64,000 bases of DNA, taken from the sequence record JX128258. One strand, given 5' to 3'. The translations under genes were made by a program, and so were the position numbers. The notes beneath the pieces were generated by a model. The model made no database searches, was not told the DNA's origin, and saw only the letters and a program-made list of their open reading frames with translations. Each line of letters starts with the position of its first letter. Position 1 is the first letter of the stretch. Below are positions 1 through 59,571 of this stretch, piece after piece. The stretch comes from Escherichia phage ECML-117.

Positions 1-94
1 TGATGTATTTATCAATTGTGCCGACGGTCTTAACCCTATGCTGACATTTGAGCGTCGCACCATCCGTGTTGCAACGTTTGGAGGGAAGTTATGA
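1..94 (+). CDS. 3' end of an upstream gene (partial; start lies outside window)
   Basis: Open frame from the window edge (frame of position 2) with no stop until TGA 92-94, overlapping the next start codon. Confidence 0.3.
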   Translation, partial: DVFINCADGLNPMLTFERRTIRVATFGGKL

Positions 95-276
95 GTACCG
101 AAGTCCACAACGCATCAGCCTTGGTTAGCTTTTACCGTAACAAAGGCGTGTCGCTCGTTAAAACGCCGCAAGGGATGTTGTTCTTTGGCACGCGATTCCT
201 GAAAGCATCGGAGCGTGAAACGCTGTCCAAGTTCGACCAGAAAACATTGCACGCAGTTTGGAGAAGACAACAATGA
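91..276 (+). CDS. hypothetical protein (61 aa)
   Basis: ORF-track ORF; GGAGGG Shine-Dalgarno just upstream of ATG 91. Confidence 0.5.
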   Translation: MSTEVHNASALVSFYRNKGVSLVKTPQGMLFFGTRFLKASERETLSKFDQKTLHAVWRRQQ

Positions 277-566
277 GACTAAGCCTAGCGCAAATTCAAA
301 CATTGTACCGGATGGAAGACGGAACGCCATACATGCTGCGCGGCGACCGCAAGAAGGCTTATGAAAAGCGGCCATCACTGTTTCACGACATCAATGCGCC
401 ATCAATCCCTGTCTTATTCCGGTTGGGCCTTGTTGATTGGGCGGCGCCAGGAGAGAAAGACCCGACGCGCTATTCATCCGTGGTGATGACAAAAGCAGGT
501 CGCGCGGCATTAAAAGAGATTAAAGAAAATATGGCTGGAGGTAAATATTATGACATCAAATCTTAA
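273..566 (+). CDS. hypothetical protein (97 aa)
   Basis: ORF-track frame 258..566; internal ATG 273 preceded by GGAGAAG chosen as start. Confidence 0.45.
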   Translation: MRLSLAQIQTLYRMEDGTPYMLRGDRKKAYEKRPSLFHDINAPSIPVLFRLGLVDWAAPGEKDPTRYSSVVMTKAGRAALKEIKENMAGGKYYDIKS

Positions 567-714
567 AGCCCGTTTATTATTCATCAAGCCGCATGTGCCA
601 TATAAGATTAGTAAGCGCACCTGGCTTAACATTTACAACCGCAGCGGCGACCGTTGTTTGTACAAGGCAAAGCGGCGCAAGAAGGTATATTCTTACACAA
701 CATCCATCAAATAA
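550..714 (+). CDS. small basic protein (54 aa), possible nucleic-acid binder
   Basis: ATG 550 preceded by GGAGG (536-540); K/R-rich; below ORF-track size cut-off. Confidence 0.3.
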   Translation: MTSNLKARLLFIKPHVPYKISKRTWLNIYNRSGDRCLYKAKRRKKVYSYTTSIK

Positions 715-732
715 GACTAGGAGAAGAATAAA

Positions 733-1245
733 ATGAAAATCGAACAACTCGAAGCAGTATTGGAAATGGCCGTAAAGGCAGGCGCAATCAAAAGCTATCG
801 TCGCGAGAAGTCAGATAGCGATAAGGTGTTTTGTCGCAACTTCTATATCGTTGGCAACCTTAACGACCACTACACCATCGAGTGGTATACTAACGTGATG
901 ACCCTTAAGTCGCGCACCATGGAGCTTTGGTGTGATGACATCTGTCTTTCGAATACTCACCCAAGCTATGATGTCGCCCTGGCATTCTATCACGGAAGCC
1001 GTCAACCTGTCGCCCACATCGGTGAGAAGCATGAGCATCTTAAGGCACGACCAGAGGAATCAATGGAAGGTTGGATTGAATGGGCTGGCGGAAAGAATCC
1101 GGTGCCTGGTAAGATGGTCGAATACAGGCTGCGCAATGAAGGGGATAAAGTGCTGTCAAGACTCTCTGACCATCTGCACTGGGCCCATATAGGAGGACTA
1201 AAAGGTAGTGACATCATTGCTTATCGGGTCGTTAAGGAGGGATGA
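733..1245 (+). CDS. hypothetical protein (170 aa)
   Basis: ORF with AGGAGAAG RBS; no motif recognised. Confidence 0.55.
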   Translation: MKIEQLEAVLEMAVKAGAIKSYRREKSDSDKVFCRNFYIVGNLNDHYTIEWYTNVMTLKSRTMELWCDDICLSNTHPSYDVALAFYHGSRQPVAHIGEKHEHLKARPEESMEGWIEWAGGKNPVPGKMVEYRLRNEGDKVLSRLSDHLHWAHIGGLKGSDIIAYRVVKEG

Positions 1246-1694
1246 TGGGTAAACGCCTTATCGCCGCTGGTTGGGCCATACCGAAGTGGGGTCATCGTGC
1301 GCATTACTTTGACGAAGGAGAAGTGCAAAGCCTTTGTGGTCGCGCAACGTATTTCGGTGATGAGCGCGTCAGCGGCGATTATATCGACTCGCTTTTAGGC
1401 AAAGGTGATTGCAAGAAGTGTCAGAATATATTAAGGGATATTCTTACGCAAAAAGGATTGCTTGAGCTTGATGAATCGGAAGAAGTAATTGAACTTAAGC
1501 TGGAAGCCAATCACCTTATTAATATGTTCAAGAACTATTACGCAACTAATATGCGCTCAAAAATGAGCGAGGAAGTAATAGAAAAGGTGTTCACCTACAA
1601 TCCGCTAAGGATGAATAAAACCAAATTGAAGAAGTTTAATATAATGTTAAGGAAAGAATTTAAAAGGCTAGGGGTGAAGAATTTTATATTTTAA
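1242..1694 (+). CDS. hypothetical protein (150 aa) with N-terminal Cys cluster
   Basis: Start overlaps previous stop (ATGATGG); Cys at C32/C57/C60 suggests a small metal-binding domain; AT-rich C-terminal half. Confidence 0.5.
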   Translation: MMGKRLIAAGWAIPKWGHRAHYFDEGEVQSLCGRATYFGDERVSGDYIDSLLGKGDCKKCQNILRDILTQKGLLELDESEEVIELKLEANHLINMFKNYYATNMRSKMSEEVIEKVFTYNPLRMNKTKLKKFNIMLRKEFKRLGVKNFIF

Positions 1695-1711
1695 TAGTGA
1701 TTAATGTTAAG

Positions 1712-1735
1712 AGGGCCGATTGGCCCTTTTTGTTT
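1712..1735 (+). terminator. rho-independent terminator
   Basis: AGGGCC-GATT-GGCCCT hairpin followed by TTTTTGTTTG, directly after the 1242..1694 stop. Confidence 0.6.
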
Positions 1736-2019
1736 GCCCGTGGGGTGTGAGTCTTTATTATCGGATAAAGCGATTGATTTGTGTAAATCTATTAGAGGAT
1801 GGTGGGGAATGAGGATTGTGACGTGATTTGTGTGTCTTGAATATGTGTGCGGATTTGGAAGAATATTGTACTGTGGTGCTGTGGGATTGGAGAGGGAATC
1901 ACTAGGTTTTGGGGCGTGTACCGTGGTGTGTGGGCCTGTAGGCTGCGCCGTCTCTGGGATTGCCGCCTGAAATTTAAAAGGAGATATAGTTAGCTGGCTA
2001 ACCTTACGTATAGAATTTA

Positions 2020-2310
2020 AGCGTATAATGACGTAAGATTTGGACCTATCCGTAGTTCACTCCACACACTTCTATGGTGCGCCGCGACTGGGTTCAGTGG
2101 TACATCTTACGGATGATACGGATGATACGCGTCGCCGCTATACTTTATACAACTTTGAAAAAAACAATTAACTCCATTTTGAATTAATTTAAATTAATTT
2201 TTTTCTACATCCTCATACTTATACTAAACTTATGTTTATACGTATTATCCGTAAGATATAAGTAAAAACAAAGACTTGCGGCAATACGGATGATACGTCA
2301 TGATACGCTT
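2020..2310 (+). promoter_or_regulatory. iteron/AT-rich regulatory element, copy A (candidate origin or operator-promoter module)
   Basis: CGTATAATGACGTA at 2022-2035; 45-nt block at 2104-2150 containing tandem GGATGATACG 9-10-mers; AT-rich core 2150-2250; further CGGATGATACG copies at 2285-2306; near-identical block at 18102-18148. Confidence 0.6.
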
Positions 2311-2535
2311 CAACCAGCCAGCAGCGGCTAAGTCATTGATTTGCATAACAAGCGGCGAAAGGGATGGATTTCTTTTATACGTATCAAACAGTACACCACG
2401 CACCACGGTCCGCTATTCATTCAGCACTATGATTTGTGTACTTTTACAGCCAATTTGAACATCAATCTGCACTTGAATATAATGTTCATTCATTGTATAA
2501 TTCACACTATTAATTTGCACTATGGGATTTGCACT

Positions 2536-3009
2536 ATGAGTCAAGATTATGTAGCAATGCCTGAAGACTTTGAAGACCCGCGATTTGCAGAGCATAATCA
2601 GGCATTATTCGATGAGTTCATTGACCTTGTTATTCAGGGCCATGACATGCGCGCAGCTTTTGCACTAGTATTTGGCATGGAGGTTGCGACCGATAACTAC
2701 ACTGGCCAGCGAATCCTCTGCACGCAACGCAATCCGTACTACAAGATGCGCTACAAAAAGCGTATGGAAGAGATGCCATTGAAGGAATTGTGGAGTGTAA
2801 AGAGTTCCATCCACAATTTAGTGAAGCTTGTGCGTGATCCAGAAGTCGCAGCATCAGCCAAGCTTAATGCCATTCGTGAACTGAATATCATCTACGGCAT
2901 CACGATGATTGATGAGAATGGCAATAGTAAAATGGGCCGTTCCATGGACGATTTCTACAAGGATTTTGGAGAGGCAGCCAAAGAGGGTGAGCAATTCTCC
3001 CGCCACTAG
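2536..3009 (+). CDS. hypothetical protein (157 aa)
   Basis: In-frame ATG 2536 inside ORF-track frame 2341..3009; the upstream part of that frame is AT-rich repeat DNA; no clear SD; start overlaps repeat copy 2. Confidence 0.45.
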   Translation: MSQDYVAMPEDFEDPRFAEHNQALFDEFIDLVIQGHDMRAAFALVFGMEVATDNYTGQRILCTQRNPYYKMRYKKRMEEMPLKELWSVKSSIHNLVKLVRDPEVAASAKLNAIRELNIIYGITMIDENGNSKMGRSMDDFYKDFGEAAKEGEQFSRH

Positions 3010-3028
3010 CCAATTTGCACTATAAAAC

Positions 3029-3062
3029 GGCCCTAGAACACATTTTCTCCACTTCTAGGGCC
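3029..3062 (+). other. perfect 10-bp stem-loop (possible terminator or RNA element)
   Basis: GGCCCTAGAA ... TTCTAGGGCC with 14-nt loop, 20 nt after the 2536..3009 stop; no T-run. Confidence 0.45.
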
Positions 3063-3407
3063 ATCGGTAATACGACGGGGAAGGTTACAACCATAAACGC
3101 TTTAGAAAGTGTATTATTATAAGTCATCTTTTAGTCACTTTACGTAACAATTTACGACCTTCCGCCGTCCAGTCGAACGACTCCACCAGCAGATTTGCAC
3201 TATAACCTAAGACGATGCGCCCTTTCTCGTTATCGACCCGCCAACAAGTCTCGAATAGCATTCGATTTGCACTATTAACTATCGCCGCAACGCGCGTTGG
3301 GTAAGCGCAATTTGCACTATGGTCGTAAAGGGATAAGGTGCGACCACTTCCGATGGACAACGTAGCGATGAGAATAAGCGTATTCATAAGCCACCAATTT
3401 GCACTAT

Positions 3408-3431
3408 GAAAAGCGACCCCGAAGGGCCGCC
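3408..3431 (-). terminator. candidate rho-independent terminator (minus strand)
   Basis: On the minus strand GCGGCCC-TTCG-GGGTCGC imperfect hairpin followed by TTTTC, just after the 3438..4064 stop. Confidence 0.4.
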
Positions 3432-3437
3432 ATTCGA

Positions 3438-4064
3438 TTAGATAATCTGGAATGTGTAGGACTTGTTGCCGAACTCAAAGGTCAAGCGTCCAGCTTCTTT
3501 AAGCTTCATGCGGAAGCGAATGTGCTTGCTATCCGGTAATCCCAGCGCGGCGAACGCTACGCGGACCGATTTGAACTCGCCTACACCTTCGACCATGACG
3601 CCGTTACGGGTGAGACGCTTTTGCGCCACTTCCTTGTTATCCCAACTTTTTGCAATACCTTCGCTATTCGAACGGCGATGGGAAGGACTGGCAATTTTAT
3701 CCGCGCCAACCGGAGCATCATTCAGGCCGCTTTTAACGAAGGCTTCATATTCTTCGTCGGTCATCGCGTCGAGTTCTTCCTGGGTCGGCTCCGCTTTTTT
3801 AACGACCGCACGCGCTTTGTGCGTTTTTACATCGCTGGACACTTCCTCGCGCGGCTTCGCGTCTGGGATGGGCGATTCGTTGGACGGCTCATCGAGCGCG
3901 TTTAAGGACTCGATTAACGCGATGACGCGAGTCTCAGCGGTGCGACGGTCCGCAAACTTCTTAATCGGTTTTGAGCCGGAGTTAGCGTTATAGAATGCAA
4001 CGAGGTCGGCGGTCTTAGTTGCGATAACGTCGCCGCTAGTAGAGAAACGATTCAAGCTAACCAT
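3438..4064 (-). CDS. hypothetical early protein (208 aa) with acidic/lysine-rich linker
   Basis: ORF with AGGAG RBS; driven by the leftward promoter at 4134-4161; CpG-rich codon usage unlike the structural genes. Confidence 0.6.
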   Translation of the reverse strand: MVSLNRFSTSGDVIATKTADLVAFYNANSGSKPIKKFADRRTAETRVIALIESLNALDEPSNESPIPDAKPREEVSSDVKTHKARAVVKKAEPTQEELDAMTDEEYEAFVKSGLNDAPVGADKIASPSHRRSNSEGIAKSWDNKEVAQKRLTRNGVMVEGVGEFKSVRVAFAALGLPDSKHIRFRMKLKEAGRLTFEFGNKSYTFQII

Positions 4065-4133
4065 AATAAACTCCTAGTTTGGGAGCGGCGTTAACGACCT
4101 ATTCGCTAACTCATCCCGTCCCGATATGAGTAC

Positions 4134-4161
4134 ATTATAATATAGTGTAGAAAAAAGTAAA
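4134..4161 (-). promoter_or_regulatory. sigma70-like promoter (leftward)
   Basis: Minus strand: TTTACT (-35) - 16 nt - TATAAT (-10); -35 embedded in CGAAAAAGTGCTTTACT, the same 17-mer that precedes the promoter at 4604. Confidence 0.5.
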
Positions 4162-4205
4162 GCACTTTTTCGATAAAAATGCGATAAATTATTTTATCTT
4201 TTTTC

Positions 4206-4233
4206 TTTACTTCTTCGTACACTCGCGTATACT
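4206..4233 (+). promoter_or_regulatory. sigma70-like promoter (rightward)
   Basis: TTTACT - 16 nt - TATACT upstream of gene 4290; shares CTTTACTTCTTCGTACACT with the promoter at 4604. Confidence 0.5.
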
Positions 4234-4289
4234 TGTTTATATCGAGACGGGCGATGGCCCTTCCTTCTACTAGCATCGGGAGCTTTATT

Positions 4290-4592
4290 ATGACTACTTT
4301 AATCTCTTCCATCCTTACTTACGACGAAGACCGTTTAACCGTTCGCTCTCTTATCGCCGCCGTTAACGCGGAACTAGAATCTAGCGCCATTAAGGTCCGC
4401 GCGGTCGCCTTCATCGGCCTTTCCTTCGACGATATGAAGTACGCCGAACGTAGCGCCATCCGCTTCGCGAAGACCGACGACGAAGCCGTTACCCTTATCG
4501 AGACGGTTACGCCGCGCGGCGAAGCGTTAATTATCGTCGAGTATATCGACGTAGAAGGCGATAAATCTTATAAACATTTTATCGCAGAATGA
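4290..4592 (+). CDS. small acidic protein (100 aa), early gene
   Basis: ATG 4290 with GGGAG RBS; net acidic; N-terminus MTTLISSI resembles the next gene's MITLAAI. Confidence 0.55.
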   Translation: MTTLISSILTYDEDRLTVRSLIAAVNAELESSAIKVRAVAFIGLSFDDMKYAERSAIRFAKTDDEAVTLIETVTPRGEALIIVEYIDVEGDKSYKHFIAE

Positions 4593-4603
4593 CGAAAAAG
4601 TGC

Positions 4604-4632
4604 TTTACTTCTTCGTACACTAAGACTATAAT
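4604..4632 (+). promoter_or_regulatory. sigma70-like promoter (rightward)
   Basis: TTTACT - 17 nt - TATAAT; preceded by CGAAAAAGTG upstream element. Confidence 0.55.
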
Positions 4633-4699
4633 GTTTTATATCGAGAGGGGATGAGGTAGCGAATAGGTCGCTACCCTCCCGACTAACTAGGAGAATATT

Positions 4700-4990
4700 A
4701 TGATTACTTTAGCCGCTATCCGTTCCGCTCGCGTCGAAACTTCCGAAAACTCTAACGTATTTGGCGAAACCTTAGAGAGCGTTTATCTCTCTAACGTAGA
4801 CGCAACTATCGAGTCTATTTATGAGCCGATCAACTTTCTCGACCTTTACAAGTATCGCGACGAGGACATCGTATCCTACCGCGTAACGATTAACGGCTTC
4901 GTTTATACGATCACCGAAATCGGCGGCGAATATATAGCTGTACCGCAACTCGGCGGCGAAGTAACTTACTTTAAAATCGTAAGCCTTTAA
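4700..4990 (+). CDS. small acidic protein (96 aa), early gene
   Basis: AGGAGAA RBS; net acidic; possible paralogue of the 4290 gene. Confidence 0.55.
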   Translation: MITLAAIRSARVETSENSNVFGETLESVYLSNVDATIESIYEPINFLDLYKYRDEDIVSYRVTINGFVYTITEIGGEYIAVPQLGGEVTYFKIVSL

Positions 4991-5001
4991 GGAGAAGAAA
5001 G

Positions 5002-5211
5002 ATGACTAATATGAATAACTCTCTTAACGCGCGCGCCCATCGCACCGCCGTAATCGATATGTTTCGCGAGCTTAAGGAATTATGCGATAATATGAACGCG
5101 ATGTTATCCATCGGCGGCTGGGGATACGAAGAAGAAGTTAAATACGCGGTTATGCGTCGCCGTCGCGATAACGTCCTTGGACAAATTAAACGCGCCGGAT
5201 TATTCCTTTAA
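5002..5211 (+). CDS. small protein (69 aa)
   Basis: AAGGAGAAG RBS; followed by a terminator. Confidence 0.5.
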   Translation: MTNMNNSLNARAHRTAVIDMFRELKELCDNMNAMLSIGGWGYEEEVKYAVMRRRRDNVLGQIKRAGLFL

Positions 5212-5237
5212 TTATAATCACCCACCGTTACTAATAG

Positions 5238-5262
5238 GCCGCGCTTAGTCGCGGCTTTTCTT
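5238..5262 (+). terminator. rho-independent terminator
   Basis: GCCGCG-CTTAGT-CGCGGC hairpin followed by TTTTCTT. Confidence 0.55.
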
Positions 5263-5381
5263 CGTCCCTATCTCAATGCGCTTCTCCGCGAAAATTCCTT
5301 TATCCTTCCCTTCGTCGTCGCATAATCTTCGTCGAGATGCTCCTTAGTTCGCATAACGGGTATTACGTTAAATGGAGAACA

Positions 5382-5457
5382 TCGCGTAAGTCCTTGTTTT
5401 ATATAGACACCTATATCGGACCGTTAAGGCGGGTCGCGTAAGTCGTTGTTTTATAAA
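5382..5457 (+). repeat. direct repeat, 2 x 24 bp (TCGCGTAAGTCNTTGTTTTATANA)
   Basis: Copies at 5382-5405 and 5434-5457 in non-coding DNA. Confidence 0.6.
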
Positions 5458-5733
5458 GGCGCAAAACTTTCCCTTCGTTCCGAACTAAAACGAGAAATAT
5501 GCGGACCCTTCGCCCGAAAATAGTACGCATGCGAAATTACCGACATCTAGAATAATCCCCGCCGATATTATCCTACACGCAATCATTAGCCTTCGAATCA
5601 TTATGCTTCATATTATTATGCATCGAATCATTCGCTTTCGAATTGTAACGCTGGAAACTGTAACGGCGATTGATTATTGCGTTCGTGTGGTTTTTATGGC
5701 ATGGGTCTTTTGGTGCGTTTTGGTACTTGATGA

Positions 5734-5845
5734 AATTTGCAGTACACTAATCAAAATACGACACATTTGGTCCACTAACTTTTCAAAGAAAAAGTCCTAG
5801 ACAGTACCGTACTATTTTGTGCCCACAGTAAATTTGCAGTACACT
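5734..5845 (+). repeat. direct repeat, 2 x 16-mer AAATTTGCAGTACACT
   Basis: Copies at 5734-5748 and 5830-5845; core ATTTGCA shared with the 11-mer array at 2513-3407. Confidence 0.6.
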
Positions 5846-5913
5846 CCTGCGCGGCAGGCAAAGAAAGGGCCGCCACAGCGACCCACGATTCACGGTTAAA
5901 TCAGCAACACCCA

Positions 5914-6622: not shown

Positions 6623-7018
6623 TCAATATTTTAATAAGAAAGCACCCAACCAACTTTCCTCAATCTCGCGGCCAGTAGCCACACGGTCGGTCTTTGCTAT
6701 GGGTCTGGATTCGCCGCAAGGTAATCCGTCTTGCAGTTGTGTACTATTGCCAATTCTCACCATGACCTTTCCATCAGGGTCGATATAAGCGCGACAACCC
6801 ATGATTTCGAGTCGTTGTAGACACTGGCGAATCGTTTTCAGCCTTTCACCGGACCGGATAGAGCGCGGTCGCGACCGCTGACCGTTCTTATTCACTGTCC
6901 GCTTAACGACCGGAATCTCATTGGTGCGTTTCGCTTTCGGTCGGTAATAGGCTTCTTCGCCAGGAGTCGCACCTGGCGTCAATTCACGCTTGAGCGCCTT
7001 TTCAATATCGATGATCAT
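6623..7018 (-). CDS. hypothetical protein (131 aa)
   Basis: ORF-track frame 6623..7078; start placed at internal ATG (MIIDIEKAL). Confidence 0.45.
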   Translation of the reverse strand: MIIDIEKALKRELTPGATPGEEAYYRPKAKRTNEIPVVKRTVNKNGQRSRPRSIRSGERLKTIRQCLQRLEIMGCRAYIDPDGKVMVRIGNSTQLQDGLPCGESRPIAKTDRVATGREIEESWLGAFLLKY

Positions 7019-12895: not shown

Positions 12896-13713
12896 CAATT
12901 AAAGCATTCCGTGCTGAAGGTCGAGTTTTCTTGCGGCAAACGACCTGGCACGGAATCGCTTACCCGCCCTTACTGCCTGTCGAATCTTCTTTTGCAAACA
13001 CTTACGATCAAAATCGTTGCGGTCGACGGCTTCGAGTAAATCACGACGCAGAGCACCCAGTGTCGACTTTTCAGAGACTTCAACGCCCAGCGCCGCTGCA
13101 ACGTCTTTCAAAACATCGAGTTCGGTTAAAGTTCTCATTTGATAATCCCCTTGATGTCTGATTCTGCCATAAAGATTGGAGTTCCGCCGCCAGGAACAAT
13201 CGAGCGCGTGACTTTATCAAACATATCGTTTTCTTCAACTTGAATACGATAGAATTTATTTTTGGATGAAGATGGGCACAATCCCATAAATTTGCCGATT
13301 CCGCGAACGCATTCATCTTCAAAGTATACTGTTTCACCTTGGATGGAGTCGATGTCGTCTACTGGATAGACCTTGCGACCCAATAGCCACTCGTCCATAG
13401 TCGCCTGCAAGACGTTTCGCGCATCTAAAATCCACGGGTCAATAGTAGCACCTTCGTATCGCGCAGCAGTGGCCTTTGCCAGTTCTTCATATTCGCATAC
13501 GTTAACGACTTCGCCGTTGTGCAAGACGACAAATACAATTGTTGTGCTCATTTCAATCTCCTTTCGTTTGGTTAACTAAAATATAACTCAAAATGATGCA
13601 AAAGCAAAATATTTTATGAACTATTTATGATCACCATACATATCATTTGCTTACAAACACATGAATATTTATAATATAGATTGATTCCCTTTCACTGTCA
13701 GGTGGCGTTAACA

Positions 13714-17880: not shown

Positions 17881-18018
17881 ATGCAAAAGATTATCCAGTC
17901 ACGTTACGTTAAAGTGCGAAATATTAATTGCAACTCTTTGCTTTCTTGGAAATGGGCTGTTTACGACTCGATGCTGATTGGCGTTTTAGTTGCTGGAGTG
18001 CTTTTTAATATTCACTGA
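17881..18018 (+). CDS. tiny membrane protein (45 aa)
   Basis: AGAGGA RBS 6 nt before ATG; one hydrophobic helix. Confidence 0.35.
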   Translation: MQKIIQSRYVKVRNINCNSLLSWKWAVYDSMLIGVLVAGVLFNIH

Positions 18019-18049: not shown

Positions 18050-18330
18050 ACGCGTATAATGACGTATCATCCGTATCAAGTAAGTAGTTGTTTTCAAAAG
18101 AATCTTACGGATGATACGGATGATACGCGTTGCCGCGATACTTTATAGGAATTCAAATAAATTAATTTAAAATTATATATCTAATTTAATTTTATTTTTT
18201 TATAAACTCTTATATATGAAAAGTATCCGTATCATCCGTATCATCCGTAGCACACCAGTGATAGCGCGGCTTATACACCGATACGGATAAAAAATACGCC
18301 TCATCTTATCCGTATCATCCGTATCACACT
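18050..18330 (+). promoter_or_regulatory. iteron/AT-rich regulatory element, copy B
   Basis: CGTATAATGACGTA at 18053-18066; 45-nt block at 18102-18148 (about 44/47 identity to 2104-2150); CCGTATCATCCGTATC arrays at 18063-18077, 18225-18248 and 18309-18326; AT-rich core 18146-18225. Confidence 0.6.
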
Positions 18331-18383: not shown

Positions 18384-18412
18384 TTGCCTAAGTTTTTTTC
18401 ATTAGATATAAT
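18384..18412 (+). promoter_or_regulatory. sigma70-like promoter for the capsid gene block
   Basis: TTGCCT - 17 nt - TATAAT, 24 nt upstream of the RBS/start of gene 18436. Confidence 0.5.
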
Positions 18413-18435: not shown

Positions 18436-19854
18436 ATGCGAATGCAAACGGCACGCGAAATTGACAAAAATGGATTCTTGACGATTGTGGGTTGTCCCAT
18501 TTCGTCATTTGGCATTTTTGATTATTCTGCAGGTCAGGTTGGACTTGATGGTGATCCGAATCGCATCGTAAAAGTTTATCGCCCAGAGTCAGCGGTGAAA
18601 GACCCCGAAGCGATAGATTCATTCAAAAATATCCCTTTCATCGACAATCACGAAATGCTTTCTGGATTCGAAGGTGATGAGGATAACACAGCACCCGAAG
18701 AGTATGGCGTTGATGGCGTTCTAACTGGCAATGTTTATTATGACAAGCCATGGATGCGCGGCGACCTTAAAGTTTTTAGCCGTCGTCTGAAGAAGGCCAT
18801 CGACTCTGGAAAGGTTGACTTGTCTTTGGGCTATGACTGTGAATTCATCATACAGTCTGGAGAGTTTGACGGGCAGCCGTATGAAGTGGTACAGACAACT
18901 CTTCGCGGCAACCACATTGCTCTCGTGGACGTTGGTCGAGTACCAGGTGCACGGGTGCTGGATGGTCGTTGCTTTGACCATCTTTGTTTGACGACTGTAA
19001 CACCATCCAACGAGGATTTAGACATGCCAAAACCGTTAAAAGGTAAAGCGCGTGATAATGCTGTTGAACAGCTGAAATCACTGATCCCTGCGCTCGAACA
19101 ATTTCTGAATGAAGAGAGCACCGAAGCTGCTCATCAGGACGAAGTTGAAGTGAAAGCAGAAGAGAAGGATTCAACCGAAGAACGTGAAGAAGTGATGGTT
19201 GATCCAGAAGTCAAAGCAGAAGCTGAAGAGACTCCAGAAGGTGAAGAGAAGTTTGAATTTGAAACTGAATCTCACGCTGGCGGCGAGCTTCCGCAACTGA
19301 TCAGCCAAATCGAAGCACTTATTGCAAAACTGAAAGGTGGCGCGGTAGGTGATGAAGAAGAAGTTGAAGCCGAAGTCAAAGACGAAGAAGTTGAAGTCAA
19401 GGCTGAAGATGTATCACCTTGCGACAAAGCTGAAGATGTGGTTAGCGGCCTGCAAAACAGCAACGTAAAGGGGGCTTCGGTCGAAAAAGATGACAAACCG
19501 ACAAAAGCGGCGAAAGCGTCGCCAGGTCCAGCAAAAGGGGAACACTCAATGGCATCTGATTCAGCAGTTGCTGCTTTCTACGCTGATTCTGCTCGTAAGA
19601 ATAGCCTCTACCAGCGCCTGTCTAAAGTTGTTGGTGCCTTTGATCATGCAACTATGGACTCCAAGTCCGTAGCGAAATATGGCGCTAAAAAGTTAGGCTT
19701 GAAGTGCGTTGATGGTGCTGAGTTTGACGTGGTGGATAATTATCTGCGCGGCGTTGAACACGGTCAAAAACAGCGTGTAGTCGCAAAACAAAAGGCCGCT
19801 GCGGATTCTGCAGCAACTGACGAAGCGTTTGAAGCTTGGTTGAAAGGGGAATAA
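18436..19854 (+). CDS. prohead protease/scaffold-like protein with acidic C-terminal region
   Basis: 472 aa; Glu-rich low-complexity C-terminal half typical of scaffolds; sits before the major capsid gene. Confidence 0.45.
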   Translation: MRMQTAREIDKNGFLTIVGCPISSFGIFDYSAGQVGLDGDPNRIVKVYRPESAVKDPEAIDSFKNIPFIDNHEMLSGFEGDEDNTAPEEYGVDGVLTGNVYYDKPWMRGDLKVFSRRLKKAIDSGKVDLSLGYDCEFIIQSGEFDGQPYEVVQTTLRGNHIALVDVGRVPGARVLDGRCFDHLCLTTVTPSNEDLDMPKPLKGKARDNAVEQLKSLIPALEQFLNEESTEAAHQDEVEVKAEEKDSTEEREEVMVDPEVKAEAEETPEGEEKFEFETESHAGGELPQLISQIEALIAKLKGGAVGDEEEVEAEVKDEEVEVKAEDVSPCDKAEDVVSGLQNSNVKGASVEKDDKPTKAAKASPGPAKGEHSMASDSAVAAFYADSARKNSLYQRLSKVVGAFDHATMDSKSVAKYGAKKLGLKCVDGAEFDVVDNYLRGVEHGQKQRVVAKQKAAADSAATDEAFEAWLKGE

Positions 19855-19856
19855 AC

Positions 19857-20474
19857 ATGACTTTCCAAACTAGTGTAGGCCGTCAATATACAACTGGCTT
19901 TCCTGGCGACATCGTTCGCGACGGCCCACAGCGTGGGAAGCCAGGCCGAATTGCCAACGCTAACGAAGGCGCAAACGTAAACGCCATCAGCCGTGTGTTC
20001 GGTTTTAAGACTGACGTATCCTTAATGGGTACTGGTCAAACCAAAACTTTGGGCGCGCAGGACTTTGAAGTTGAGCTGGGCGGCACTAACTACTACGGCA
20101 TCCTCGGCAATAGCAAGCGTTACGCGCTGTATGGCAACTCTACTGGTCCTTTGGGTGCCAGCATGGTTCTGCCTCAATATAGCGAAGGCGAGTTCTATGA
20201 TATGTGCACGGGCCTCGTAGTTGAAGTATTCAACCCAAGCACCAGTCCGCAGACGCTTAACTATGGCGACCTGCTTGCTTATGTACCTAAAGGCATTTCC
20301 AGCGGTAACAACCCGAACAACTTGCCTATTGGTGCAATTATCGCCTATACTGGCTCATTGCCAACTGGCATGGTTGCCATCCCAGGCGGTATTGTGATTG
20401 ACCCGACGACTATTGCCCTTTCCGGCCCAAGCGTCCAGTCTTCCACTTATACCATTGTACAATTGACTCGTTAA
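19857..20474 (+). CDS. head protein (205 aa), possible decoration/auxiliary capsid protein
   Basis: Internal ATG 19857 with AAAGGGGA RBS; lies between scaffold and major capsid genes. Confidence 0.4.
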   Translation: MTFQTSVGRQYTTGFPGDIVRDGPQRGKPGRIANANEGANVNAISRVFGFKTDVSLMGTGQTKTLGAQDFEVELGGTNYYGILGNSKRYALYGNSTGPLGASMVLPQYSEGEFYDMCTGLVVEVFNPSTSPQTLNYGDLLAYVPKGISSGNNPNNLPIGAIIAYTGSLPTGMVAIPGGIVIDPTTIALSGPSVQSSTYTIVQLTR

Positions 20475-20488
20475 TAGGCAGGTGAATA

Positions 20489-21628
20489 ATGACTCGCATT
20501 AGCCAAACACACTCTCGCCTCCCAGCGAGCAAGGTGCGCCCTTTTGATATGCAATCCGTGACCGACGCGGCTGTTTCCCAGCTTGCGCGTATCGGTATTG
20601 TGTTTGATTCCGCGATTGTGCGTGATCAGATTGAGCACTTAAACCGTGCAGGCGCTTTCCGCGTAGGTGACGCCGCATTTACTGCGCCGCAAACCACGCC
20701 ATCAATCCCGACCCCGCTGCAGTTCCTGCAACAGTGGCTGCCTGGCTTCGTCAAAATCATGACCGCTGCCCGTAAAATTGACGAGCTGGTTGGTATTGAC
20801 ACCGTTGGTCAGTGGGAAGATGCAGAAATCGTTCAGGGCATCGTTGAACCAGCTGGCACCGCAGTTGAATATGGTGATTTCACCTCTATTCCTCTGGCAA
20901 GCTGGAACGTGAACTTTGAACGCCGTTCCATCGTTCGCGGTGAAATGGGCATGGCAGTCGGCATGCTGGAAGAAGGCCGCGCGTCTGCGATGCGTCTGAA
21001 CTCTGCAGAGACCAAGCGCCAGCAGGCTGCTGTATCTCTGGAAATCATGCGTAACGCAATCGGCTTCTATGGTTGGTATAACGGGAACAACCGCACGTTC
21101 GGCTTCCTGAATGATCCAAACCTGCCAGCGGCAATGACTTCAAACACCACTTCCGGCTGGGCTACTGCGACCTTCCAACAGGTGACTGCAGACATCCGTT
21201 TGATGGTTCGTCAAATCCGTGTCAACTCTCAGGACCAGATTGATCCAGAGAAGGTTGATATGACTCTGGCGCTGCCGACCAACTCTATTGATTGGCTGTC
21301 AAACACCACCGACTTCGGTATTTCTGTACGTGACTGGATCACCCAGACTTATCCGAAGATGAAGATCAAATCTGCACCGGAACTCAACGGCGCACTTGGC
21401 AGTGACCCGACTTTCCTGAACGTGGCATATCTGTACGCTGATCACATCGATTCCTCAATTGATGGCTCAAGCGATGATGGTTCCGTATTCAGTCAGCTGG
21501 TCCAGACTAAGTTTATGACTCTGGGCGTTGAGAAACGCGCTAAGAGCTACGTTGAAGACTACGCAAACGCAACAGCAGGCGTTCTGCTCAAGCGTCCTTT
21601 CGCAGTCGTCCGTATGACTGGTATCTAA
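20489..21628 (+). CDS. major capsid protein
   Basis: 379 aa, canonical position after protease/scaffold; followed by a strong stem-loop. Confidence 0.6.
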
Positions 21629-22213: not shown

Positions 22214-22678
22214 GTGAATGCCATGTCATTAGATTACGAAAAGTTCAGAATAAAATTTCCACAGTTTGCTGATCAGGTAAAATTCCCTGACACAACGCTT
22301 CAAGTATTCTATGACATGGCATGTGAATTTATTGAATCACAAGACAGTCCTTGTCGTGTTTTAAATGGCAGTAAATTGGAGCTGGCATTGGAATATATGA
22401 CGGCTCATCTTTTATGCATAGCCACAGACCAACAGGTGTCTGTGTCTTCTGGTGACGGAGTTGAACAAGGCGGCTTCGTGACTGGTGCAACAATCGGTGA
22501 CATCACCGTGAATAAGGTAGCGCCGCCTGCAAGTGATGGTTGGGAATACTGGCTTTCAAGCACTCCTTATGGCATGGCGCTTTGGGCGCTTCTGCAAGCA
22601 CTGGCTGTCGGCGGCTTGTCGTTTGGCGGTCTTCCAGAGCGCGAAGGATTTCGTAAAATTGGTGGGGTATTCTGGTGA
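22214..22678 (+). CDS. head completion/connector protein (putative)
   Basis: 154 aa; synteny only. Confidence 0.35.
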   Translation: MNAMSLDYEKFRIKFPQFADQVKFPDTTLQVFYDMACEFIESQDSPCRVLNGSKLELALEYMTAHLLCIATDQQVSVSSGDGVEQGGFVTGATIGDITVNKVAPPASDGWEYWLSSTPYGMALWALLQALAVGGLSFGGLPEREGFRKIGGVFW

Positions 22679-44835: not shown

Positions 44836-44909
44836 TTTGTATTCCTCTGTTTCGTTTCGATGAAGTAATTATGACTCATCTTCCCTGACAAGTCAAATTA
44901 TTTTTGATA

Positions 44910-46433
44910 TTAATTCATCTTTTTGCCGTCGAGGATGTGATCAGCAAGCATAGACTTCATACTTAGTGAACGCTGAATTTCTTCGTCGATGGTATCAACA
45001 CCAATAAAATCAACATACAATACGCTTGATTTTGTTCCGATGCGGTGATTTCGGTCTTCGGATTGCTTGCGCAACTCGTTGTCATAGTTGCAAGAATAGT
45101 AGATTGCCAAGTCAGCGGCGGTAAGCGTGATGCCGATGCCTGCCGCTGCAGCGTGGCAAACCAATACCTGTGTTCCGCCATTCGCCACTGTGTTCTTCTG
45201 GAAGTCATCAATTAAGAACTCGCGTTGCTCTTTTGACGTTTCACCGTTGTATACACCAGTGACCACGCCTTCAGACTCAAGCCAATCCTTAATCTGGTTC
45301 ATCTCTTCCTTAAAGATGGCCCAAACAATGAATTTGCGCTCTGGGTCATCTTCCAACACCCCTTCCACATAGTCCTTAAATGCCGTGAATCGTGGGTTGT
45401 CTTCCATGTAGACCATCTCATCATACACCTTAACAAAGCCGGATGTCACCTGCTTCATCTTAGTGCGCGACGCGATCATCTCAAACTTGACGTTTTCTTC
45501 TTCGCCTTTGTACTCCATCAGATAGTTGTACTCATTCTTGAGTTCATCGTAAACATCGCGTTGTTTAGGCGACAACTCGAAGTCAATAAACTTGTACACC
45601 TTCTCTGGAAGGTCCGGCAAGTATTCCGCTTTTGTCGCACGAAAATAGTGCGGTTCCATCAGCCGGATAAGCTTGTCAAGGTTTTTGTACATCGGTCGGC
45701 CAAACTGGTCTTTGCGCGGCACTTGCGGAATCCCATGGCCATTGCCGCCGATTTTCTTGAGGATGGCTTGCATCTCTGGGTCGTGCGCTTCAAGTAGCAC
45801 CGTGAATTCAGAGTTGAATGCACGGAATGATTTGGTGCCGAGCAAGCCTGCTTCAAGGAAGTGGTATTGCATGTAAATATCCGCAGGCGAGCGCGGCAAC
45901 GGCGTGCCAGAAAGGATTCGACGGGCCTTTGCCAGCCGTCCCAATTCCACAACCTTGATGGAGCGTTTTGCTGTGTTATTCTTGATTCGCGTTGATTCGT
46001 CGATAATCATCAGGCAGCGGTATTTCTTCAAGACCGACTCGATGTGTTGATAACCGACTGGTGTGTTGACTGTGTCGATGTTGAATGAGAAAATGCGCGC
46101 AGGCACTTCGCCTTCAGGGTAGTGATCAGCAAACATCTTCTCCCAAAGCGCCTTGCCCTTTTTAGTCTTCATCTTGTCATTGCCGCGCCAGTAGTGCCCA
46201 ATCCACTTGATGGAAAGGTGTTCTGGTGCTTCACGACGAATCCAGTTTGAGTGGACACCGTTTGGAGCGATGACGACCATGGCATCGAACGCGCCAGCGA
46301 CGAAGTGCTTTTCAAACTCTGCCAAAGCGGTCCAAGTTTTACCAAGACCCTGTTCCATGAAATAGGCAAAGTATTTTCTGCGGCCTGCTTTATCAAGCGC
46401 CAGAAGCTGGTGGCGCATCCCTTGTGTTTTCAT
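44910..46433 (-). CDS. SNF2-family helicase/ATPase
   Basis: Walker A GLGKTW, DEST box (DESTRIKN), C-terminal helicase motifs. Confidence 0.75.
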   Translation of the reverse strand: MKTQGMRHQLLALDKAGRRKYFAYFMEQGLGKTWTALAEFEKHFVAGAFDAMVVIAPNGVHSNWIRREAPEHLSIKWIGHYWRGNDKMKTKKGKALWEKMFADHYPEGEVPARIFSFNIDTVNTPVGYQHIESVLKKYRCLMIIDESTRIKNNTAKRSIKVVELGRLAKARRILSGTPLPRSPADIYMQYHFLEAGLLGTKSFRAFNSEFTVLLEAHDPEMQAILKKIGGNGHGIPQVPRKDQFGRPMYKNLDKLIRLMEPHYFRATKAEYLPDLPEKVYKFIDFELSPKQRDVYDELKNEYNYLMEYKGEEENVKFEMIASRTKMKQVTSGFVKVYDEMVYMEDNPRFTAFKDYVEGVLEDDPERKFIVWAIFKEEMNQIKDWLESEGVVTGVYNGETSKEQREFLIDDFQKNTVANGGTQVLVCHAAAAGIGITLTAADLAIYYSCNYDNELRKQSEDRNHRIGTKSSVLYVDFIGVDTIDEEIQRSLSMKSMLADHILDGKKMN

Positions 46434-51664: not shown

Positions 51665-51729
51665 TTATTTATCCTTTTTGGACTTCGTTTCGATGAGATA
51701 AATATAACTCATCGAAACGCACAAGTAAA

Positions 51730-52602
51730 CTATTTATTGAAATTAATATTGTGGGTGTTGACGAGACGTTCACACATGGCGCTGTAAACACCATCGTCGT
51801 GTATAGAGTCTTCGTGCTTCAGGCCGCTGATTGCAAAGCGTGTAAGCTTGACAATCTTAAGCTCGAACAGATGCCACATGTGGTAGTCTTCCGGCGTTTT
51901 CAACGTTACGCCATTAGGGAAAAGCACCTGCATAACCTGGCCAACCATCACGGCATTATCGCCATAGACAGCGTTGCGCTCACGGAAGGTTGCTGCCATT
52001 GCATCAAGAATATCGGCGGCAGTTGCCGGAGATTGTTCAACTTCCACAGTCTTAGTCTCTTCTTGTCCTGTTGCGCTTGGATCAATTGCTAATTGTTGCA
52101 CCACTTCACCTGCCTTGCAAAGATTAAATGTAAAAGCGATTTTATTTTGAGCAACGGAATTATAATACAATGCTTCATCTTGCATCCGCGCGAGCACGTC
52201 TTGTCGGTCGTCGAATACATTGATGATTCGATAATCGCCGTGCCGCAATGCGTGCGATAGCCATGCAGATTTCATAATAGTTGATGGACGTTTGTCGCCA
52301 TAGTCTCTCATCTTGATTGTAAATTCATCAAAAGGAAAAACATTGTCCAGACGTTCAAAAGTCACTTGTCTGTATTTTTCTGGCCTTGCAGTCCAATATT
52401 CAACCGCCTCACCGCGAAGAGATGCCGACTCTACTGCTGATGCAATGCGAGGATAGAACTGATCATAACCAATACCGCTGTGATAGTCATCATAGTCTGA
52501 CAACGGACCTGCCACCTTTATGCGGTCCAAGCGCCAACGGTCATCAAACAGCGTTCCGTCAAGGTCGAATACGTTTAATATTTGGTTATTTTTAATACTC
52601 AT
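51730..52602 (-). CDS. HAD-superfamily phosphatase/nucleotidase with extra C-terminal domain
   Basis: Motif I FDLDGTLFD near the N-terminus; additional ~110-aa C-terminal domain of unknown type. Confidence 0.55.
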   Translation of the reverse strand: MSIKNNQILNVFDLDGTLFDDRWRLDRIKVAGPLSDYDDYHSGIGYDQFYPRIASAVESASLRGEAVEYWTARPEKYRQVTFERLDNVFPFDEFTIKMRDYGDKRPSTIMKSAWLSHALRHGDYRIINVFDDRQDVLARMQDEALYYNSVAQNKIAFTFNLCKAGEVVQQLAIDPSATGQEETKTVEVEQSPATAADILDAMAATFRERNAVYGDNAVMVGQVMQVLFPNGVTLKTPEDYHMWHLFELKIVKLTRFAISGLKHEDSIHDDGVYSAMCERLVNTHNINFNK

Positions 52603-55055: not shown

Positions 55056-55901
55056 TTATTCCGCTTGATCACCGTCTTCGGCATCGTCGTTGGATTCAAC
55101 ATCGACAAACTCGATGTGACCCATCTCTTCCAGCTTGCTCAGGTAGGAGCGAACGGAAGCGCCAAACAGTTGATCTTTAACTTTTTCGCCCAGCTCATCG
55201 ATAGACTGCGCCACGCCAACTTCGCCTTCTTTGATCGCCGCCAGAACGCGTCCACGGGTGGAGTGCTCTTGCGGCTGGCTCAGGCCATTGCCAGTGTAGA
55301 TGAAGTGAGTAGCTTTTGCACGACGCTGACCGTTTGCCTTTTTAGCGGCCTTACGTTCTGCGATGGCTTTGCGACGTTCTTCAGCTTCTTTCTTACGCTG
55401 TTCTTTCTGCTGTTCTGCAGCTTCTTTCGCCGCAATCTTAGCAGCTTCACGCTCTGCCTTGCGTTTCGCTTTAGCTTCTTCTTTAGCCTTCTCTTTTTCG
55501 GCCTTCGCTGCAGCACGGGCTTGATCACGCTCTGCTTTCTTAGCAGCAGCTTGCTCAGCTTTCAGACGCTTGGCTTCTTCTTTAGCCTTCGCCTTTTCGA
55601 TTTCTTTTGCTGCTTTAGCGGCTTCACGCTCTGCCTTCTTAGCAGCAGCCTTTTCTGCACGCTCTTTGGCTTTCTTCGCTGCTTCTTCAGCACGTTTCTG
55701 AGCCTTCTCATCAGCAGCCTGCTTACGTTTCAGTGCAGCTTCTTCACGCTTGGCTTGTTTTTCCTGCTCACGCTTTTGGCGTTTTTCTTCGGCTTCTTTC
55801 TTTTTAGCCAGGCGTTTTTCTTCAGCCACGCGACGACGTTCTGCTGCAGCTGCTTGTTTTTCTTCTTTAGATAATACTTTGATTGCTTCGGCCATGTTCA
55901 C
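55056..55901 (-). CDS. Lys/Ala/Glu-rich coiled-coil protein with C-terminal globular domain
   Basis: About 190 aa of AEEKR/AKKA low-complexity repeats, then a ~80-aa non-repetitive acidic C-terminus; DNA shows internal tandem repeats. Confidence 0.55.
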   Translation of the reverse strand: MNMAEAIKVLSKEEKQAAAAERRRVAEEKRLAKKKEAEEKRQKREQEKQAKREEAALKRKQAADEKAQKRAEEAAKKAKERAEKAAAKKAEREAAKAAKEIEKAKAKEEAKRLKAEQAAAKKAERDQARAAAKAEKEKAKEEAKAKRKAEREAAKIAAKEAAEQQKEQRKKEAEERRKAIAERKAAKKANGQRRAKATHFIYTGNGLSQPQEHSTRGRVLAAIKEGEVGVAQSIDELGEKVKDQLFGASVRSYLSKLEEMGHIEFVDVESNDDAEDGDQAE

Positions 55902-59307: not shown

Positions 59308-59571
59308 ATGGGCGCTTTCCGCAACGAGTTTATTTGGAACGTCACAAGCAGTCTTTCGACTTGTCCTAACTGTGCGAGCGATGTGATCAAGGTGCGGCAG
59401 CATCGCAGTGCAGAGGAAGGTGCCTGGGAGGACGGCGACCTTGTAGAGTGCCAGTGCTGCTCTCACGAAGGCGTGGTGGAGCTTTACGCAGGAGAAGGTT
59501 GTCCACCAGCAGAACGTTCAGCACGCGTTGAATGGGATGCGACAGACTCCATCGGTGATCCTCAACAGTAA
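59308..59571 (+). CDS. Cys-rich small protein (zinc-ribbon-like, 87 aa)
   Basis: CPNC ... CQCC Cys pairs; GAGGTG RBS before internal ATG 59308. Confidence 0.45.
   Translation: MGAFRNEFIWNVTSSLSTCPNCASDVIKVRQHRSAEEGAWEDGDLVECQCCSHEGVVELYAGEGCPPAERSARVEWDATDSIGDPQQ

Follow-up and report, generated by a model that had tools for sequence, protein, structure and literature searches.

What are two homologous, AT-rich non-coding elements for when they stand some 16 kb apart in one phage genome, each upstream of a rightward gene? We analysed 64,000 nucleotides of Escherichia phage ECML-117 (JX128258; hereafter the window), in which copy A (about 2020-2310) precedes the gene that starts at 2536 and copy B (about 18050-18330) the gene that starts at 18436. 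An earlier note on this DNA, which had correctly placed both copies upstream of these genes, saw in the pair the architecture of an iteron-type replication origin or, alternatively, a shared operator-promoter module; it missed that the left end of the genome lies in the core of copy A and that the gene at 2536 encodes the small terminase. Given the genome end in the A core and terS at 2536, copy A is best read as a packaging site (pac or terminal-repeat boundary), and not primarily as an origin.

The window phage is a Wifcevirus, as positions 1700-2700 share 97.9% identity with Escherichia phage vB_EcoM_WFH; they match 27 records, every one of which is a Wifcevirus or an unclassified near relative. 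The genus comprises myoviruses of about 68 kb that infect E. coli and Shigella and are distant kin of the Pseudomonas PB1-like phages (Pbunavirus). The earlier note had expected its 9-mer array to be conserved in related genomes. This holds within Wifcevirus, where both copies are found in 27 of the 27 records of the phage collection, but the other four genera with such a pair carry a word of their own instead. In diverged Wifcevirus lineages the homology of copy A begins precisely at 2104, and in Bas101, where copy B lies near locus position 6640, the tandem pair matching window 18109-18127 is short by exactly one 9-nt word, a case of word copy-number variation inside the genus. Scanning IMG/VR for the tandem word returned Wifcevirus genomes only, apart from one coding match that we rejected as chance (the sequence encodes DDTDDT), and six loci came from scanning metagenomes for ATCTTACGGATGATACGGAT, one of them a chance coding match and none informative on DNA ends. 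A metagenome-assembled Wifcevirus contig of 68.5 kb in IMG/VR (UViG_3300045988_152943) stops exactly where copy B has its 47-nt block (locus coordinates 13625-13650); short-read assemblies probably break at the A/B repeat, so that such contig ends should not be taken for genome termini.

The likeness of the two loci, and most of what had been said about it, is borne out. The block described as 45 nt with about three mismatches is 47 nt long and does recur with 3 mismatches (2104-2150 in A, 18102-18148 in B); extended without gaps it reaches 66 nt at 85% identity, and a gapped alignment, which detects no third copy of the element in the window, covers 154 nt at 75% identity (E 2e-20). The shared 14-mer CGTATAATGACGTA occurs twice in the whole window, at the left edges of A and B (2022-2035 and 18053-18066), and the right edge of copy A carries its inverted copy, TACGTCATGATACG (2294-2307). 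The repeated word, reported as several 9-10-mers in both orientations, is GGATGATACG, whose nine exact occurrences in the window lie on both strands and all inside the two copies; with up to one mismatch there are 12 matches, against 2.97 ± 1.75 in shuffled sequences (none of 100 shuffles reached 12). Its core, TACGGAT, has 14 of its 21 occurrences inside A and B, about 1% of the window, with nine in B and five in A. The words form a dyad around the AT core of both copies: direct words stand to the left (2108 and 2117 in A; 18106 and 18115 in B), inverted words to the right (2247 in A; 18225, 18234 and 18243 in B), and words of opposite orientation lie further outward on either side. The cores are indeed very AT-rich, with a G+C content of 20% in A (2140-2250) and 13% in B (18140-18230). 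A cruciform or hairpin was rejected as a defining feature of the core, as the signal was inconsistent (z -1.7 in A, +0.8 in B and -4.0 in the related phage Kyle).

Table 1. Features of the two elements and their surroundings (window coordinates).
Feature	Position	Strand	Details
GT-rich top-strand tract	1740..1990	+	directly left of copy A, after the terminator of a long rightward operon; GC skew to +0.78
Copy A, outer left arm	2022..2054		CGTATAATGACGTA at 2022-2035 and inverted TACGGAT at 2048-2054 (-)
Copy A, 47-nt block common with B	2104..2150	+	tandem GGATGATACG at 2111-2120 and 2120-2129
Copy A, AT-rich core	2150..2245		phased A/T tracts; 18-nt palindrome AATTAATTTAAATTAATT at 2182-2199
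Physical left end of virion DNA, left boundary of direct terminal repeat	2175..2176		AATTAACTCC/ATTTTG
Copy A, right arm	2241..2307		inverted word 2241-2250 (-, 1 mismatch); word 2288-2297 (+); TACGTCATGATACG at 2294-2307
Exact GGATGATACG in copy A	2111, 2120, 2288	+	
Direct terminal repeat	2176..5710	+	3,535 bp in the window phage; published lengths 3.5-3.7 kb
terS promoter, sigma-70-like	2473..2501	+	TTGAAT, 17 nt, TATAAT; outside A/B common block
terS, small terminase gene (157 aa)	2536..3009	+	phmmer E 9e-33 to PDB 7UXE
Copy B, outer left arm	18053..18072		CGTATAATGACGTA, then inverted word 18063-18072 (-)
Copy B, 47-nt block common with A	18102..18148	+	tandem words 18109-18118 and 18118-18127
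Copy B, AT-rich core	18148..18222		13% G+C; without the AACTCC/ATTTT motif of the copy A cut site
Copy B, right arm	18225..18326		inverted cores 18225, 18234, 18243 (-); direct 18282 (+); inverted 18308, 18317 (-)
Exact GGATGATACG in copy B	18109, 18118 (+); 18063, 18228, 18237, 18311 (-)		
Head-protease operon promoter, sigma-70-like	18384..18412	+	TTGCCT, 17 nt, TATAAT; outside A/B common block
Head maturation protease gene (DUF2213)	18436..19854	+	Pfam PF09979 E 5e-35; phrog_3778; Bas101 annotation

The flanks of the elements have features of their own. A compositional tract like the GT-rich one to the left of copy A is also present to the left of the equivalent element in the phages MTx, LMA2, JG024 and BcepF1. 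We dropped an RNA reading of this tract because Rfam returned no match above threshold in 1500-2700 (only a sub-threshold mcrA, E 0.18). Directly upstream of copy B, an ORF (17881-18018) encodes about 45 aa, hydrophobic at the C-terminus, and small ORFs of 45-70 aa occupy the equivalent position in Kyle, MTx, LMA2 and BcepF1.

In four records, which come from three laboratories, the left genome end falls at window 2176. Those of WFH, WFC and Ro157lw have this position as their first base, begin ATTTT(G/A)A and include both copies of the terminal repeat, while the last base of the Mansfield record is window 2175; PhageTerm was used for the termini of Ro157lw and Mansfield. The repeat measures 3,533 bp in Ro157lw and about 3.7 kb in WFC and WFH (Korf et al.), and positions 1-3701 of the WFH record are present again at 67583-71283. 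Since the right ends of WFH and Ro157lw fall at one homologous base, window 5710 (the WFC record extends 82 nt beyond it), the repeat corresponds to 2176-5710. The same sequence stands at both virion ends, and these ends are sharp and reproducible, as befits the boundary of a terminal repeat. The cut at 2175/2176 sits in the AT core of copy A, 6 nt to the left of its palindrome, and AATTAACTCC/ATTTT does not vary among diverged A copies, whereas the surrounding core and flanks do. Copy A thus shows two marks of a pac site, a physical DNA end inside the element and an adjacent small terminase gene; at copy B no end has been reported, and the small terminase gene is not its neighbour.

The other end of the repeat looks different. 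Around 5710 we find AATCATT words (5581, 5596 and 5626), TGGTGCG directly after the end, and CAGTACACTAATCA at 5740-5753, and the right boundary of the repeat in Kyle (locus coordinates 3460-3650) has AATCATT/AATGATT words and CAGTACACTAATCA too, though Kyle belongs to another genus. The right end is thus sequence-specific and bears no relation to the copy A words. We discarded as chance an 11-nt match to the right-end motif that falls within coding sequence at 22567. Two short words, ATTTGCACTAT and AAATTTGCAGTACACT, occur at 2514-2537 and 3192-3217 as well as at 5733-5750 and 5830-5846, that is, around the start of terS and just past the right end of the repeat, and may be operator-like sites. 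Inside the repeat there are two adjacent inverted-repeat pairs at 4092-4172 / 4593-4673, with arms of 36 nt and 30 nt that are 89-90% complementary (about 80 nt per side, with about 420 nt enclosed); they could mark an invertible segment or divergent paralogous 5' regions.

Strand composition is mirrored about the cut in copy A, the top strand being GT-rich to the left (skew to +0.78) and C/A-rich to the right (2300-3200); the observation takes in locus coordinates 21080-21190 (-) of BcepF1. Chi-like octamers with up to one mismatch lie on the + strand to the left of copy A (534, 1084, 1266 and 1798) and on the - strand to the right (2311, 2318 and 3003, with an exact Chi at 3183); exact CCACCAGC is also found just right of the cut in Kyle, MTx and LMA2. 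Both ends produced by a cut at A would thus carry GT-rich, Chi-like strands ending 3', which might protect against RecBCD or promote recombination, though the numbers are small; across the window exact Chi is not significantly enriched (4 against 1.4 expected).

The identity of the neighbouring genes adds the second argument. The product of the gene at 2536 matches the small terminase of Pseudomonas phage E217 (7UXE) over residues 3-147, and a protein identical to it is annotated as terminase small subunit in the Mansfield record. terS is the first gene within the terminal repeat and starts 360 bp to the right of the cut. The classic pac arrangement has just this form, with repeated words around a cut site and terS directly after it. 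Copy B stands before the gene that opens the protease, scaffold and major capsid operon. The remaining neighbouring genes received no function from Pfam or PHROGs. We note that terS is labelled 'hypothetical protein' in most Pbunavirus and Wifcevirus records, and that in BcepF1 (EF153632) its homologue is unannotated at locus coordinates 20082-20486 (-), with three small opposite-strand ORFs, BcepF1.058-.060, called across it. Elsewhere in the window, a repeat family of 58-64 nt has three copies (13563-13620, 44851-44914 and 51684-51747), and it may represent a module for regulation or termination that the phage uses repeatedly; its two best-matching copies, at 44851 and 51684, combine an inverted repeat (TTCGTTTCGATGAG...CTCATCGAAACG) with a tail rich in AT. 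Repeats with a period of about 99-102 nt at 55423-55658 probably reflect a repetitive coding segment on the - strand.

The A/B pair is present in five genera, Wifcevirus, Kylevirus, Myosmarvirus, Pbunavirus and Bcepfunavirus, with terS always downstream of A and the DUF2213 protease gene downstream of B. In Pantoea phage Kyle, Serratia phage MTx, Pseudomonas phage LMA2 and Burkholderia phage BcepF1, the large non-coding region before the protease gene is homologous to the genome's own A. Local alignment scores for A against B within a genome range from 64 to 84, where block-shuffle controls give 12-15 ± 2 (z 20-34), while comparisons of the elements between genera score 10-20, the level of the shuffles. 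Each genus has its own word (GGATGATAC in Wifcevirus, GGTTATT in Kyle, CGAAAAG in MTx, GGTAATT in Pbunavirus and TTAGTTA in BcepF1), and proteins of the five genera share about 40-57% identity. As judged from these alignments, the pair is ancient and the words of A and B turn over together within each lineage. FoX7 (Carpasinavirus) has terS and the protease gene, with no recognisable A/B element.

Genome ends that have been mapped in relatives also fall at copy A. In Kyle and MTx, which have mapped terminal repeats, the left end is again in the centre of A, and terS is found beside the A-equivalent in Kyle, MTx, LMA2, JG024 and BcepF1. For JG024, 36 of 161 long reads start at 59,376 ± 5, a matching pac fragment was seen on gels and a pac site was proposed (Ipoutcha et al.); this position falls inside the A-equivalent, between the left words and the AT palindrome. 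Base 1 of Ab27, which was set at 'a single fixed termination' of reads (Essoh et al.), aligns exactly with JG024 59,376, and for SCUT-S1 PhageTerm gave a pac site 'in an AT-rich region' (Guo et al.). Packaging thus starts at this element in the headful Pbunavirus phages as well as in those enterobacterial genera that have terminal repeats.

On balance we think it probable that copy A is a pac-type packaging-initiation site and at the same time the left boundary of the repeat, and that copy B, its paralogue, is occupied by the same factor and left uncut. The arrays of 9-bp words with their TACGGAT core point from both sides to an AT-rich, intrinsically deformable centre, and would be the docking sites of one phage-specific DNA-binding factor. 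The likeliest candidate is the product of the next gene downstream, the ring-shaped small terminase. TerS, also the most economical candidate, is a decameric ring with peripheral helix-turn-helix motifs (PMC9611059), and successive words 9 bp apart would suit such a ring. Against this, E217 TerS showed no appreciable DNA binding in vitro (PMC9611059), though pac DNA was probably not in the assay. The bound complex would place the large terminase for a cut at AACTCC/ATTTT, after which the DNA to the right of the cut would be packaged.

Copy B keeps the binding arms and the AT core, with a diverged cut-site segment. In the window phage, MTx and LMA2, A and B are least similar in the central segment that holds the cut of A. 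Since B retains the arms and not the cut sequence in Wifcevirus, Myosmarvirus and Pbunavirus, and no second end has been reported, we infer that B is bound and not cut; in Kyle the centre of copy B matches A almost as well as the arms do, so that cutting at B would be possible there. As copy B always lies shortly before the promoter that serves the protease, scaffold and capsid operon (about 60 bp from last word to promoter in the window phage), it could couple or buffer the packaging factor with capsid-gene expression, or serve as an accessory docking site. More broadly, B may act in terminase docking or regulation, as an origin or as an enhancer-like partner. Excess TerS inhibits packaging and lowers the burst size of E217 (PMC9611059), and from this one might conjecture a titrating or coupling site. 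We also consider, though as an unlikely extension, that A and B form a functional pair, with TerS or another word-binder bridging both, or with B as a copy-number-dependent sink or operator, such that packaging at A would be licensed by, or coupled to, procapsid-gene expression.

Several observations count against the packaging reading. Copy B is richer in words than copy A, which is odd for a mere accessory site; an AT core with flanking repeats is also classic origin anatomy; a primase-helicase gene lies to the left of A in MTx, LMA2, JG024 and BcepF1; and FoX7 has the two genes and does without the element.

Replication is accordingly the alternative to be weighed first, and we regard it as improbable: both copies would be origins, or one an origin and the other a cis-acting enhancer as in the ori/crr system of P4, with the words as iterons for a D5/P4-alpha-type primase-helicase, the AT core as the unwinding element and the terminase cut merely co-located. 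The architecture that the earlier note had recognised is strongly supported in so far as it means arrays of protein-binding words around an AT-rich centre, common to two functional loci, and the pair has been kept in five genera; its assignment to iteron-type origins is not directly supported, as the words are 9 bp long and DnaA boxes are absent, though an origin role is conceivable, above all for copy B. Repeats in both orientations around a core of 13-20% G+C, which would be the unwinding element, fit the anatomy of an origin, and the primase-helicase gene is immediately to the left of the A-equivalent in the four relatives just named (in LMA2 and JG024 the element lies between that gene and terS). 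P4 ori/crr is a precedent for two distant copies bound by one protein. The AT-rich pac region of SCUT-S1, it has been speculated, 'could be a replication origin' (Guo et al.). Against this, neither element contains a DnaA box at up to one mismatch or an IHF consensus (one match at 2329, on the reverse strand, lies at the right edge of the scan of A, past the last word), the words are not 17-22 bp long and come in tandems of two or three as well as inverted, and the primase genes of the window phage are about 8 kb away from copy A. GC skew across the window follows gene orientation only and hence says nothing about origins, and the experimental data on A all concern DNA ends and packaging.

An operator function would fit the position of both copies upstream of rightward genes with sigma-70-like promoters: the words could be operators through which a phage transcription factor controls two late units together, terS and the head-protease, scaffold and capsid operon; the common sequence would be a regulatory module upstream of both and the terminus at A incidental. 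The B core of Pbunavirus is itself predicted as a sigma-70 promoter, some promoters of phage 14-1 are not of the sigma-70 type and depend on unknown phage factors, and AT-rich intergenic motifs in Pbunavirus have been left unexplained (Garbe et al.). The shared operator-promoter module that had been suggested for the window phage is weakened, however, because both promoters lie beyond the common block at unequal distances: the last words end at 2307 in A and 18326 in B, and the promoters follow 60-170 bp further on. No promoter-like site passed the scan in the core of copy A, and the one in the core of copy B (18216-18244) is weak, with 9 of 12 matches, and overlaps inverted words. Moreover, other late units (large terminase, portal and tail genes) have no words, and this reading would not account for genome ends that lie centrally in A in four genera. 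We therefore hold this explanation to be more doubtful still. That copy B merely duplicates the pac region, has no function and is kept A-like only by gene conversion, is very improbable: the long near-identical blocks (of 47 nt in the window phage, and of 41 and 30 nt in MTx), which suggest recent conversion, and the B-like segment TATAGAATTCGAAAAATTAATT in the WFC-type copy A indicate that conversion clearly occurs, yet it cannot explain why a complete B, with arms and core, a conserved word layout of its own and more words than A, has been kept at the same position in five genera with protein identities of only about 40-57%, nor would conversion alone guard B from deletion in compact genomes.

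Parts of the packaging reading are already in the literature or in sequence records, namely the terminal repeat with its coordinates, the assignment of TerS, and 'pac in an AT-rich region'. Our literature search found no report of the word arrays that flank the cut, of the second copy before the capsid operon or of the concerted evolution of the two across five genera, and a conserved second copy before the capsid operon belongs to no described pac system. How small terminases recognize viral DNA is still unsettled (PMC9611059). In the PB1-like group, the structure of E217 TerS has been solved while its DNA target was not previously known, and the word arrays around the mapped end are a candidate for that target. 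Five genera with five words form a natural panel for specificity, and with such lineage-specific words, binding and word-swap experiments are straightforward. Copy B could show that packaging is tied to capsid expression, or it could turn out to be an origin. If A and B do work as a functional pair, PB1-like phages, including the Pbunavirus phages used in therapy, would share a two-site element that controls packaging. There are practical consequences as well: breaks at the 47-nt A/B repeat have to be reckoned with in assembly, and both elements are better left intact when Pbunavirus or Wifcevirus genomes are rebooted or engineered.

Among known systems, the pac sites of SPP1 (pacL-pacC-pacR) and P1 come closest in layout, as there, too, short repeated words flank a central cleavage region, the small terminase gene lies alongside, and packaging in one direction starts from one cut; in P1 pac, arrays of hexamers stand on both sides of the cut. 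They have no sequence relationship to the elements described here, which also differ in that the site is the exact boundary of a terminal repeat in Wifcevirus, Kylevirus and Myosmarvirus, and in that a second full paralogous copy lies 16-20 kb away. The concatemer junction of T7 combines an exact end at the repeat boundary with short repeat arrays, near promoter or AT-rich, origin-like elements. The exact genome end flanked by short repeat arrays is shared with copy A, but the T7 repeat is 160 bp and not 3.5 kb, the large terminase here is headful-like (according to the BcepF1 annotation) with no phage RNA polymerase involved, and another set of motifs, with AATCATT words, marks the right end at 5710.

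Other systems resemble the pair more than the end. The ori and crr elements of P4 are likewise two separated cis elements with one short word, presumably bound by one phage protein, and a P4-alpha/D5-type primase-helicase is encoded nearby in several of the relatives; they are nevertheless replication elements and not genome ends, whereas the functional data here concern DNA ends and packaging. Iteron origins such as lambda ori and plasmid oriV share the repeated binding words beside an AT-rich, easily melted region, and differ from the present elements, whose 9-bp words are arranged in dyad, with no DnaA boxes and, in the window phage, no adjacent initiator gene. Finally, homology between pac sequences in genes 16 and 19 of T4 gave rise to the 'twin-ring pac synapsis' model, in which two homologous sites are bridged by stacked TerS rings, and the C-terminal helix of E217 TerS has been hypothesised to promote ring-ring oligomers (PMC9611059). 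T4 thus offers the parallel of two homologous sites in one genome, but its sites are 24-bp coding sequences with no unique packaging end, while those described here are non-coding elements of about 300 bp, one of which is a defined end of the genome.
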